A stretch of 40,217 nucleotides of DNA from a virus (lineage: Duplodnaviria > Heunggongvirae > Uroviricota > Caudoviricetes). Below the pieces are notes generated by a model. It did not search any database. It had not been told where the DNA came from and saw nothing but the letters and a program-made list of their open reading frames with translations. Numbering within the stretch: position 1 is the first letter of the stretch; each line of letters opens with the position of its first letter. The DNA lies in the IMG/VR virus record IMGVR_UViG_3300042154_003418, positions 1 to 40,217 of that record; one strand, given 5' to 3'. Below are positions 10,636 to 15,835 of this stretch, piece by piece. Both the position numbers and the translations under genes were made by a program.

Positions 10636-11649
10636 ATGAACGATATTAAACTACTAGACTTTCCAGGCTTAGCCAGAGACTTTCAACAAACCTACACTCA
10701 ACTACGAGACGAACGATTACGGCTAGCCCAGGCTGTTGCAGAACGCCGCTATCGACAACAGTATAACCAATTGGTCCAGCAATTTTCAGGTTACGATTCG
10801 GAAGCAGGTAGTGACGGCATTGAAGAATCGGTTCGAGAATCACTGGGCGAGTTCGACCCACAAGCGGTTCAACTGCCAGAATCGGTATTACGTGAGTGTA
10901 AACACACGGCTAAGAGTAGTGTGGTTGAAGCTTGGAGTCTTAAAAACTCCCTTCCACAAAAGCTAACTTGGCTGCCGCATCAGCTGTTAGCATACTTTGG
11001 CACTTGGCAGGCTGTTCGTGACGACACAGGCAAGTATAGTGCCACACTAACCTGGGATGCCAACACCAGGGCTCGCGGCGACTACTACGCCTTAGGGTCG
11101 GCATTGCTGGCTACCTCCACTCGCACAAATTTTTTCAAGGATGCGCCTAAGGGTAATCAGCAGTACAAAAGTGTAATCAACCCACTTGTACCAATTATCT
11201 TAGCAGGATTTAAAAAGTATCAAGGCATCAACTATTCAGATTGGAATCCAGTTGGTTTGGAAACTTTGCTAGACCCTGAATTGGCCAAGCTTGTAGGTGT
11301 TTCGGTGCCGGAACTTTCACACAGCGAATTAATTGCGCTACGCAACACTGCCCTTACAGACAAAGAAGGTGCACGAGCAGGTATCCCCAATAATCCAGCT
11401 ACTTGCACCAAGCTCAATCACCTTGGTAATACGGCCATAGGTCACCTACCAAAACTTGCCAAATACATGGTACTACAAACCTGGGCAGCACATCCCAGCA
11501 ATCGTAATGAGTATATGATCTTAGACCCTAACAATTGGGATCACATTCCAGAGCCCCTGATCGGCAAAGATATTTTCTTGCCCAAACCACTTCAAGCCAC
11601 ACAACCCAGAATGGTTACCAGCTATTCGGAACTACCATGGGATGCTTGA
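10636..11649 (+). CDS. D2: T5 D2-like protein
   Basis: NPLVPIILAGFKKYQGINYSDW and LPKLAKYMVLQTW...RNEYMI...PEPL...PW recall T5 D2; precedes a D3-like gene as in T5. Confidence 0.7.
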   Translation: MNDIKLLDFPGLARDFQQTYTQLRDERLRLAQAVAERRYRQQYNQLVQQFSGYDSEAGSDGIEESVRESLGEFDPQAVQLPESVLRECKHTAKSSVVEAWSLKNSLPQKLTWLPHQLLAYFGTWQAVRDDTGKYSATLTWDANTRARGDYYALGSALLATSTRTNFFKDAPKGNQQYKSVINPLVPIILAGFKKYQGINYSDWNPVGLETLLDPELAKLVGVSVPELSHSELIALRNTALTDKEGARAGIPNNPATCTKLNHLGNTAIGHLPKLAKYMVLQTWAAHPSNRNEYMILDPNNWDHIPEPLIGKDIFLPKPLQATQPRMVTSYSELPWDA

Positions 11650-11962
11650 AATGAAATACACCAAAGAAATTTGTGACCACATGGTTCAAGCCTATAATTC
11701 AGGGGTTACGGTGCCACAGCTAGCACAGGAGCTGGACGTGCCCGAACGCAGCATAATTGCCAAGCTATCGAGCCTGGGAGTCTACCAGAAAAAGAGCTAC
11801 TTAAACAAGCGTGGTGAAACGCCGGTGAAAAAGTCAGAGCACATCGAACGCATTGCCATACTCTTGAACACCAACCTAGAATTGCTAGAATCATTAGAAA
11901 AAGTCAACAAAACTGTGCTGGTCATGATCGAACGCGCGCTCACCGACCCTAAACTGCCATAA
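11642..11962 (+). CDS. D3: T5 D3/A2-family HTH DNA-binding protein
   Basis: YT.E...MV..Y..G.TV..LA..L....RSIIAKLS..GVY...KK....I...L....ESLEK.NK; paralog of three other ORFs in the window. Confidence 0.7.
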   Translation: MLEMKYTKEICDHMVQAYNSGVTVPQLAQELDVPERSIIAKLSSLGVYQKKSYLNKRGETPVKKSEHIERIAILLNTNLELLESLEKVNKTVLVMIERALTDPKLP

Positions 11963-12192: not shown

Positions 12193-12230
12193 TTGACAAC
12201 AAAGGTTCTGCACTGGTATAATTTGGCGCA
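12193..12230 (+). promoter_or_regulatory. Promoter cassette copy (TTGACA-N18-TATAAT-TTGGCGCA)
   Basis: Direct sequence match; faces the terminator at 12283. Confidence 0.7.
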
Positions 12231-12282
12231 GACCGCAACAGACTAGGTGTAAAAATGTCGAGCTGACCAAAACACCCAAAAC

Positions 12283-12317
12283 AAAAGCCCCAAGAGTAGC
12301 TAACTCTTGGGGCTTTT
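12283..12317. terminator. Bidirectional intrinsic terminator
   Basis: 15-bp stem AAAAGCCCCAAGAGT/ACTCTTGGGGCTTTT with T tracts in both directions. Confidence 0.85.
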
Positions 12318-12485
12318 GAACAATCACGAGTGCACTCGCTGTTAGTTTTTAGTCTCACACGACGACTTACTGGGGGTACCACCCACGCTAACTGCATCGA
12401 CCCTAAACTGGAGCACGGTCGCAGGGCATTAGGTTATTGCCTGTGTAGCTCTAGCAGGGGAGAAAGTATTGGTTCGGCTCTTCAG

Positions 12486-12777
12486 CCCACCACACGGTTT
12501 ACGACACTGGGCTTTGTCGACTGCTATAGATTAACGACTGTTGCAGTTCGGGGTCGGGTGCTACGGTTCCAGCGCATGCACCACTTTTAGCGACTCGGGG
12601 TCGGGTGCTCCAGTCGAAGCTTTTGCACCACTTTTAACGACTTAGGGTCGAGTGCTCAGTTTGCGATAAGCACCACTCAGGGGCCATTTAACGACAATCC
12701 GTGTCGGGCCACATTAACGAGGGCCAAGCTCGGGTACGTAAGTGCACCAGGCTGCCAAGACCATTTTACGTCGGTAC
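12486..12777 (-). repeat. Array of repeated hairpin units (CGAC-loop-GTCG-YTAAA alternating with GGTGC-N13-15-GCACC)
   Basis: 32-nt repeats at 12578 and 12625 (28/32 identical, period 47) plus degenerate flanking units, one with a compensatory CGAG/CTCG stem. Confidence 0.75.
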
Positions 12778-12918
12778 CAGATAAGACGGCAGTTTATATA
12801 GTAACTGCTCACTAGGCTTACTCATTTCCAGCTAATCACTTTCAGTGGTGGGTCCATCCGGTTTTCGCTTTCGCTACTAGGCTTCAAGAGTCAGTCACAT
12901 CCCGGTTTCGCTGGGTTT

Positions 12919-13025
12919 TCATCCTGACCCTAAGGTACGGCAAGCGGTGATGTGGGAAAATCACGCACACTTGCTGTGAGGCCTTAAGGTTTCGCACAAC
13001 TTGCATGTGCTCATCAGAGGGTTGG
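12919..13025 (-). ncRNA. Hammerhead ribozyme, type I
   Basis: CUGAUGA-GCACA[UGCAAGU]UGUGC-GAAA core; 9-bp stem III (ACCUUAAGG/CCUUAGGGU); GUC cleavage triplet; short stem I (CCU/AGG). Confidence 0.8.
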
Positions 13026-13236
13026 TATCGCATACGGGTAACGATCCCGTCTAGGTACCTTGAAAGGGTACTGACCTCACCTGAAGTCGAATGCGATATG
13101 TTAAATTAGCCACGCAGGTATTTTACTACTTACCATACGGAACATCGTCCAGATATTACGGGCTAAAAAGGTTGGGCTGCGACTAGAGTTTGTTCGGTCG
13201 CAATCAAGTTGTTATCCCAGCATCGAGTGCTGAGCC

Positions 13237-13682: not shown

Positions 13683-13991
13683 ATTATAACATACAACAGT
13701 TAACATAATCAAGATAATATTTAGTAGCCTTGTTAACTGCTGTTGTCTTATCGCTTTCTAAGTATATATTATATCAAACTCAATTAACAAAATCAACAAA
13801 AGAATTCCAATCGTTTCCTCAAGACTAGCTTCGCAGGTGTGTCGACGTACAGTGACTGGTTAGTGATTGCGGCTGCTGAGGCAGAACTGGCACCGGTTGA
13901 TTAATCACACGGTATTCATTAAGCCATTCCCGACTGGGTTCTTTGTTAATTTCTAAGTATATATTATATCGCGAAATGGGTCACAGATCAA
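13683..13991 (-). promoter_or_regulatory. Three tandem minus-strand promoters upstream of the ncRNA
   Basis: TTGATT-N18-TGnTATAAT (13712-13683), TTGATT-N17-TATAAT (13796-13768), TTGATC-N17-TATAAT (13991-13963); the latter two share the leader ATATACTTAGAAA. Confidence 0.75.
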
Positions 13992-14014: not shown

Positions 14015-14323
14015 TTAAGCAAGTTCTGCAACCAGACGCTCAAGCACTTCGTGGTTGGCCTTTTCCAGGCTTTCAAACACTTCTGGAGCAACGCCGCAGG
14101 CAAGTGCCAGCTTGTCCACCAGTTCGGCTTTACGCACACGGTGTTGGCCGGTGGCCTTGGTTTTGGCCACGTACACGCCTTCGCGGCTGAGTTTGGCCAC
14201 TACACTGCGTACGGTTTTGCCCAGGGTCTCGGCCAGTTGTTCCACGGTCTTGCCCGACTGGTAGCCTGTGACGAGTTCCACGGTTTGCTCGGGAGTGTAG
14301 TTTTGAGGGGTTGCTTTAGTCAT
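14015..14323 (-). CDS. A2: T5 A2/D3-family DNA-binding protein, paralog
   Basis: NYTPEQT...GKTVRSVVAKLSREGVY...ESLEKAN; RBS AAAGGA; the 195-aa track start is an upstream extension. Confidence 0.8.
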   Translation of the reverse strand: MTKATPQNYTPEQTVELVTGYQSGKTVEQLAETLGKTVRSVVAKLSREGVYVAKTKATGQHRVRKAELVDKLALACGVAPEVFESLEKANHEVLERLVAELA

Positions 14324-14363
14324 CATATGTCCTTTGGTTGGTTTCTGCGCTGTTGAAGATTCT

Positions 14364-14392
14364 ATTATACGTGAATCAGAAGGGAACATCAA
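14364..14392 (-). promoter_or_regulatory. Promoter of the A2-like paralog
   Basis: TTGATG-N17-TATAAT-AGAATCTTCAACA; the same leader recurs at 15852-15870. Confidence 0.75.
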
Positions 14393-14507
14393 GATCAAAA
14401 TTTTCGTCTTGAGTGGTAGTATCACAAAACATTTCCGATAGTTCCGCATCCACAAATTCATCGAATGCCGCATACTGATACGCTGTGAAAAATTCGTTTG
14501 TTGCCAT
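14376..14507 (-). CDS. 43-aa acidic peptide ending ...DENFDLDVPF (SSB C-terminal-tip-like)
   Basis: Own promoter (TTGCAG-N17-TATAAT near 14536-14564) and AGGAGA RBS; 11 D/E and no K/R. Confidence 0.65.
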   Translation of the reverse strand: MATNEFFTAYQYAAFDEFVDAELSEMFCDTTTQDENFDLDVPF

Positions 14508-14579
14508 CTGCCGTTATCTCCTGTTGATGTAATAATTATACAAAACTTGGACACTTGCTGCAATATCAAAAATTTCGTC

Positions 14580-14700
14580 TTGACACTGTAAAGCTTTTGC
14601 ACTTATAATTTGGCGCAGCAAACCCTCAAGTTTTTGCACTTGACCGCGCACTGGCGCAAGGCCCAAGGTTTTGCACTTGACAAGGTTTCGCACTGGCGCA
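14580..14700 (+). promoter_or_regulatory. Promoter cassette copy plus two degenerate TTTTGCACTT...TGGCGCA repeats
   Basis: TTGACA-N18-TATAAT-TTGGCGCA at 14580-14617; repeats at about 14632-14658 and 14669-14700. Confidence 0.7.
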
Positions 14701-15502: not shown

Positions 15503-15835
15503 TCAAATTGGCTTAGAATTAGCCAATGCTGAAAAAATCTTTTCCAACGCCGTTTTATTGGCTTTTGTAAGAGATTCGATCTCATTTTCAGTCAATTTGA
15601 GAATCGCGCCGATTGCATCAGCGTGAGCATCTTTTTTGACTACTGGAGCACCAGTTTTGGAAACGTAGGTTTTAGCCACGTAAACTTTTTCGCGTGACAG
15701 TTTAGCCACAACTGAACGAACGGTTTTGCCCATGCTTTCAGCAATTGATTCCACTGTGACACCAGCCGCATAATCGGCCACCATTTTAGCGGTTTGCTCT
15801 GCGGTATAGTTGACCGCCTTAGTTGCTTTTTCCAT
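15503..15835 (-). CDS. A2: T5 A2-like DNA-binding protein, paralog
   Basis: VNYTAEQT...GKTVRSVVAKLSREKVY...VKKDAHADAI...ESLTKANK. Confidence 0.8.
   Translation of the reverse strand: MEKATKAVNYTAEQTAKMVADYAAGVTVESIAESMGKTVRSVVAKLSREKVYVAKTYVSKTGAPVVKKDAHADAIGAILKLTENEIESLTKANKTALEKIFSALANSKPI

Follow-up and report, generated by a model that had tools for sequence, protein, structure and literature searches.

The minus strand of the phage DNA analysed here carries, at positions 13022-12921, what is very probably, on the evidence of its sequence, a real hammerhead ribozyme that would cut itself between positions 12926 and 12925. The ribozyme is present in about 60 related phage contigs, where it forms part of a conserved non-coding unit spanning 0.65-1.7 kb across uncultured T5-like phages. 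The window (the whole stretch analysed, 40,217 nucleotides) comes from an IMG/VR virus record that is complete and has direct terminal repeats, a genome of 104,217 bp with 23 tRNA genes. Its fused protease-capsid protein showed 35-38% identity to those of Vibrio and Aeromonas Demerecviridae, and the virus is therefore regarded as a distant, uncultured T5-like phage.

All the core nucleotides of a hammerhead were found by direct reading of the minus strand, in the following arrangement:

13018-13022, minus strand: 5' strand of helix I, ACCCU, positions 2.5-2.1 (direct reading; pair counts)
13011-13017, minus strand: core C3 U4 G5 A6 U7 G8 A9, read as CUGAUGA from 13017 to 13011 (direct reading)
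12994-13010, minus strand: helix II, GCACA/UGUGC, with loop UGCAAGU and the G10.1-C11.1 pair (direct reading, RNAfold)
12991-12993, minus strand: core G12 A13 A14 (direct reading; protein-anchored alignment)
12927-12990, minus strand: helix III, 9 pairs plus a distal hairpin extension (direct reading, RNAfold)
12981-12936, minus strand: distal hairpin extension of helix III, 46 nt (RNAfold)
12926, minus strand: C17, with the predicted scissile bond on its 3' side, 12926/12925 (hammerhead numbering)
12921-12925, minus strand: 3' strand of helix I, AGGAU, positions 1.1-1.5 (direct reading, pair counts)

The complete core claimed in the preliminary description, including the G10.1-C11.1 pair, is thus present on this strand. 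Helix I is where both open ends emerge, which gives the topology of a type I hammerhead, again in line with the earlier claim. Helix III, previously given as a 9-bp stem with one G-U, is formed by the pairing of ACCUUAAGG (12990-12982) with CCUUAGGGU (12935-12927); it begins with A15.1-U16.1 and contains a single U.G (12987.12930) among its nine pairs. The further paired extension that had been described (GCAAGU/GCUUGC and GUGAU/AUCAC) was reproduced by RNAfold, together with helices II and III, as segments of 2, 7 and 5 pairs, including GCAAGUG/CGCUUGC and GUGAU/AUCAC. The GUC site and the predicted cut at 12926/12925 were likewise borne out, the position following from hammerhead numbering and residue 17 being C or A in the family. 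The helix II loop, UGCAAGU, is compatible with a GNRA tetraloop closed by U.G.

Stem I had been singled out as weak, and helix I of the window indeed consists of three Watson-Crick pairs (CCU/AGG), followed by the C13021.A12922 mismatch and the A13022-U12921 pair. Across the relatives, position 2.4-1.4 was U-A, C-G or C.A, the last in about half of them, the window included. Given this distribution, the short helix I is a trait shared by the ribozyme family and not a fault of the window copy. It might slow cleavage or make it switchable, as had been suggested, or might favour release of the 3' product. The nearest-neighbour model yielded a minimum free energy of -32.3 kcal/mol for a register in which the cleavage site is base-paired with core nucleotides, and placed the ribozyme-competent fold (-29.5 kcal/mol) 2.8 kcal/mol above it, with energies that leave out the tertiary interactions of the hammerhead core.

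A relaxed hammerhead descriptor (CUGANGA, GAAA and H17, with a minimum of 3 pairs in helices I and II and of 4 in helix III, the latter opening with A-U) matched the 104,217-bp genome once, compared with 0.037 matches per dinucleotide-shuffled genome, and a strict version (at least 5 pairs in helix II and 8 in helix III) produced no matches in 300 dinucleotide shuffles. The family was aligned with MAFFT, and a covariance model made from this alignment also gave a single match in the genome (120 bits, E value of 7e-35). Across approximately 250,000 windows, the expectation of one chance match of such quality is, by a rough estimate, of the order of 0.1-1; coincidence is therefore still conceivable for a single match, and it is conservation that carries the argument.

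To begin with, a DNA pattern built on the core retrieved 45 IMG/VR loci with 40 distinct sequences, which are invariant at the pattern letters by construction. Leaving helix I free in the pattern added no family members and rendered only 7 non-ribozyme matches. Since the pattern fixes its own letters, a ribozyme-blind set was used, consisting of 52 loci fetched through the upstream protein gene (14015-14602, minus strand), with the ribozyme not serving as a criterion. The covariance model located the ribozyme in 44 of the 52, on the strand of the gene every time, and six of the eight misses were contigs ending 260 nt or less from the anchor gene. In this protein-anchored set, C3, U4, G5, A6, G8, A9, G12, A13, A14, A15.1 and U16.1 were invariant. 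The conserved core was observed in 36-37 of the 38 distinct sequences, the remainder being alignment gaps, and the A15.1-U16.1 pair in every aligned sequence. Position N7 was U or C, with A in one divergent member (L075), and H17 was C in 33 sequences, A in 3 and G in none. Both are hammerhead positions known to tolerate variation.

The helices, for their part, varied in a compensatory manner. RNAalifold on the raw MAFFT alignment recovered the helix bases only, and pairs were therefore counted on the specified structure. In the unfitted alignment, standard pairs occupied 84.7% of the cells versus 73.1% in shuffles, with none of 500 shuffles reaching 84.7%; when the partner was slid by one to three columns, 25-44% of the cells were paired. 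The model-fitted, protein-anchored alignment gave the same covariation picture. Helix II showed double changes at all five of its pairs, with 93.5% of cells paired and with variants such as GCACA, GCUGA, GCCGA, GCAUA, GCCAG and GCUUA, among others. Covariation was detected at five of the nine proximal pairs of helix III, whose 3' strand drifted through CUGGGGG, CUGUGGG and CUGGAGG, each with a matching 5' strand. Helix I was the weakest helix (74.5% of cells paired). Even so, its 2.1-1.1 pair changed from U-A to A-U in three lineages (L068, L079/L081 and L076) and its 2.2-1.2 pair from C-G to U-A in L075 (CCUU/AAGG), and the U-A and C-G variants at 2.4-1.4 were compensatory as well. Its length ranged from 3 to 7 pairs, being 6 in the short subtype described below, 7 with wobbles in L075, and 5 in L091 and L076. 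An invariant core, variation only at N7 and H17, and compensatory changes in the helices make up the pattern expected of an active hammerhead, and at the level of sequence this pattern is the signature of a hammerhead under catalytic constraint and not of a mere junction.

The loop II consensus, U-G-N-A-A-K-U, corresponds to a U.G- or U.U-closed GNRA tetraloop. No covarying partner for loop II was found in the 60 nt of 5' flank or the 90 nt of 3' flank, and a search for a helix I extension or a loop II pseudoknot revealed no consistent partner. The GNRA loop may dock on the invariant CC/GG of helix I. Some divergent members depart from the common architecture. An extra U between A9 and G10.1 was present in L065 (4470-4680), L066 (4620-4775), L075 (4600-4790) and L091 (4297-4430); the first three of these also bear an insertion of 35-80 nt within helix II that contains the GACCCUAAAC motif. 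Another member, L095, has U.U at 10.1-11.1 and may be impaired.

The sequences surrounding the ribozyme provided the following features:

13991-13963, 13796-13768 and 13712-13683, minus strand: three sigma-70-type promoters, within 13683-13991 (consensus scan)
13023-13097, minus strand: tRNA-Glu (UUC) gene, CCA encoded, ending 1 nt before helix I (ARAGORN)
12282-12925, minus strand: predicted 3' cleavage product, about 650 nt, ending at the terminator (terminator scan)
12318-12282, minus strand: intrinsic terminator with a 16-pair stem and a U run (terminator scan)

Each of the three promoters has 10 of 12 consensus matches, two of them with an extended -10, and the promoter block upstream of the ribozyme is conserved in relatives. 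The unit from promoter to terminator measures 1.4-1.7 kb without a credible gene, and no open reading frame of 100 aa or more was found between these promoters and the terminator, in agreement with the earlier placement of the ribozyme inside a phage non-coding RNA. The predicted 3' product contains CGAC-loop-GUCG hairpin repeats. Between 12486 and 12777 on the minus strand, CGAC-loop-GUCG-UUAAAAG repeats alternate with GGUGC...GCACC hairpins, an arrangement kept in L019 and partly in other relatives. On the plus strand, a perfect sigma-70 promoter (12/12, with extended -10) at 12193-12222 is aimed into the minus-strand unit at its 3' end and terminator; as it faces that unit, antisense transcription is possible. 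The protein encoded upstream (14015-14602, minus strand) matched a D5-like regulator/DNA-binding family in PHROGs. It is one of three paralogous small proteins around the unit, the others being encoded at 11642-11962 (plus strand) and 15503-15835 (minus strand), and the three share PHROGs families (D5-like transcriptional regulator, DNA-binding protein).

In a short subtype, represented by L009, L014, L017, L022, L026 and L039, an 82-nt ribozyme lies about 290 nt downstream of the promoter, and in most sequences the hairpin of an intrinsic terminator begins 8-9 nt past the cleavage site. Given this position immediately before a terminator hairpin, the ribozyme of the short subtype probably makes RNA ends. 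After that terminator, these phages carry a second small promoter-to-terminator RNA gene with the GACCCUAAG motif.

The tRNA-Glu gene next to the ribozyme of the window gave a 78% blastn match to phage tRNA-Glu genes. Comparison of 13018-13105 with a near-identical relative (L019, whose flanks are at least about 95% identical) showed that the gene is missing there, the difference being a clean indel of 79 nt; relative to L019, the insertion sits exactly at the 5' edge of the ribozyme. This clean insertion is a sign that tRNA genes are mobile cassettes in these phages. At least four other lineages, in which the tRNA-Glu sequences have diverged, show the same adjacency (L003/L005, L051/L061, L076 and L059); in L024, L032 and L040 the tRNA is 100 nt upstream of the ribozyme, and the majority of family members have no tRNA nearby. 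The two tRNA-Glu (UUC) genes at 13023-13097 and at genome positions 100735-100809 (both minus strand) have T-loops that start with A54 (AUCGUUA and AUCGAAA, versus UUCGAAU), and the Rfam tRNA model did not report the tRNA-Glu of the window even at an E value of up to 10, despite the ARAGORN call and a perfect cloverleaf. The tRNAs at the corresponding place in L051, L024 and L032 have a canonical T-loop.

A recurrent DNA motif overlaps the ribozyme. There are 25 copies of TTAGGGTC in the genome versus about 3 expected (approximately 8-fold over-representation), on both strands and both within and between genes, with GCAGYTTAGGGTC as the extended consensus. The 3' strand of helix III with the cleavage site (UUAGGGUC) is one such copy. 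Those in the window include the following:

14012, 12933, 12406 and 11952, minus strand: copies of TTAGGGTC
12119, 12164 and 12642, plus strand: copies of TTAGGGTC

Hairpin loops of the non-coding unit repeatedly contain the reverse complement of the motif, GACCCUAA. The motif is possibly a protein-binding or recombination site, and part of the conservation of the helix III 3' strand may have a DNA-level cause.

Three other explanations have to be weighed against a self-cleaving ribozyme. One is that the element is a hammerhead-shaped three-way junction whose cutting has been lost or is negligible and which is kept as a structural module of a larger RNA. It would fit the very short helix I of the window and of about half of the relatives, the competing register favoured by the minimum free energy, and the conservation of loop II and of the helix III tip beyond catalytic need, which suggests contacts elsewhere in the RNA. 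However, a structural junction would not be expected to hold eleven catalytic or junction nucleotides invariant while its helices drift, nor to restrict variation to N7 and H17 and avoid G at position 17, and the members with a helix I of 5-7 pairs have an identical core. We consider an inactive junction improbable.

That the ribozyme serves to mature the neighbouring tRNA-Glu, in the way that phage tRNAs are matured by HDV-like theta ribozymes, is an idea to which the single nucleotide between tRNA and helix I, in the window and in the other lineages with diverged tRNAs, lends some appeal. Nevertheless, most family members have no tRNA near the ribozyme, L019 retains the ribozyme without one, and in three members the tRNA is 100 nt away. 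Moreover, type I hammerheads are cut at their own 3' end, and as this end lies 97 nt past the CCA in the window, cleavage would not release the 3' end of the tRNA. Since most members lack a tRNA and the cut falls so far past the CCA, the ribozyme is not primarily a tRNA-processing device, and we hold the maturation role to be very improbable. Lastly, the conservation could be a DNA-level feature, an inverted pair of TTAGGGTC motifs (for example, protein-binding sites), with the likeness to a hammerhead being coincidental. The abundance of the motif on both strands, also inside genes, and the presence of the helix III 3' strand among its copies speak in its favour. Yet the motif leaves unexplained the core (CUGAUGA and GAAA), the covarying helix II, the compensatory changes of helix III at drifted motif copies and the fixed strand relative to promoters and terminators, and coincidence of this kind is hardly credible.

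Transcription of the unit would start at up to three phage promoters (13991-13683) and stop at the strong terminator (12318-12282). With all three helices in place, the short helix I included, the transcript would cleave itself on the 3' side of C12926, with no need for a host RNase. The upstream product would measure about 750-1030 nt, depending on the promoter used, and would comprise the upstream modules, the tRNA-Glu and nearly the whole ribozyme, ending in a 2',3'-cyclic phosphate. For its part, the downstream product, of about 650 nt, would begin with a 5'-OH at A12925. In the long subtype the ribozyme would separate two long non-coding domains; in the short subtype the cut would remove the terminator hairpin only, thereby setting the 3' end of the upstream RNA.

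The role that we favour for the ribozyme, with reasonable though not high confidence, is thus to form RNA ends and to separate the parts of a modular phage RNA operon. A broader proposal is considerably more tentative, namely that the hammerhead is the obligatory end-maker in an undescribed class of modular non-coding RNA operons of aquatic T5-like phages, with ends that might resist host exonucleases and the 5'-end-dependent RNase E, and with a 5' boundary that might act as a docking point for repeatedly gained and lost tRNA-Glu cassettes. The idea that 2',3'-cyclic phosphate and 5'-OH ends protect the products, and would thus provide stable and defined RNAs, comes from general knowledge of bacterial RNA decay. 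No RtcB ligase, which could use the ends made by the ribozyme, was found in the phage genome.

The comparison with databases placed the family outside what the Rfam models and the cultured phages searched contain. Rfam hammerhead models gave no match to the window, to a 211-nt stretch or to 12 related loci, either at the gathering score or at an E value of up to 10, probably because of the long helix III (about 60 nt), and a search of the window and of 136 kb of related loci brought no family above threshold except tRNAs, GOLLD and ROOL being among those without a match. The covariance model found no significant match in the five genomes of cultured Demerecviridae searched (T5, pVp-1, TS3, D420 and KIT04); a 10-bit match in T5 was rejected because it has no hammerhead core. 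When the whole unit was compared with GenBank phages by blastn, the tRNA matched and nothing else did, and megablast with 20 kb gave no match. Among prokaryote genomes, two true copies were found, on small metagenome-assembled-genome contigs that resemble mis-binned phage fragments, and a match in Halomonas was dismissed as a chance match. Literature searches found no paper linking hammerheads to T5-like phages. Hammerheads are absent from the theta-ribozyme paper (PMC10879173), and a paper on 224 candidate RNA motifs mentions them in passing only and holds nothing resembling the present RNA.

Phage genomes have been known to contain hammerheads since 2011, and an established purpose is still rare among bacterial and phage copies. 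The present ribozyme is a family-level addition to a known ribozyme class in a new and informative context, not a new kind of ribozyme. That context is unusually clear: each transcript has a single ribozyme, always in the same position between conserved non-coding modules that have their own promoters, and in one subtype the terminator follows immediately. It points to a concrete and testable role, the formation of defined RNA ends without host RNases. Well-conserved hammerheads whose helix III is long escape the current Rfam models, so that hammerheads are probably undercounted in phage annotations.

Among known systems, the closest are the type I hammerheads of bacteria, prophages and phages (RF00163, Hammerhead_1), which have been reported in intergenic regions of phages PaP3 and Bcep176 (Perreault et al. 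2011, PMC3088659). The present ribozyme shares with them the core, the three-helix junction, the open helix I, C at H17 and an intergenic location in phages. Unlike them, it is missed by Rfam, has an unusually short helix I and a helix III of about 60 nt, and is embedded in a conserved non-coding unit; no stem I/stem II pseudoknot was found. HDV-like theta ribozymes adjoin phage tRNAs (Kienbeck et al. 2024, PMC10879173), and the window resembles that arrangement in having a small ribozyme of the self-cleaving type directly 3' of a phage tRNA gene. However, theta ribozymes have an HDV-like fold and cut at their own 5' end right after the tRNA, whereas the present one has a hammerhead fold, would cut at its 3' boundary, 97 nt past the CCA, and has the tRNA as an optional neighbour.

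GOLLD and ROOL are long, ORF-free, structured RNA loci of phages and prophages, often found beside tRNAs. The present locus is similarly a long ORF-free RNA locus of phages, but it is modular and cassette-like in appearance, contains a hammerhead and has no Rfam match to either family; to our knowledge, a self-cleaving ribozyme is not a described feature of GOLLD or ROOL. In Agrobacterium tumefaciens, a mobile element has triple hammerheads that flank ardA and cut its polycistronic transcript into pieces (Perreault et al. 2011, PMC3088659). The phage ribozyme is similarly predicted to cut its transcript into pieces; in contrast to the ardA hammerheads, which flank protein-coding genes, it is a single ribozyme placed between non-coding modules.
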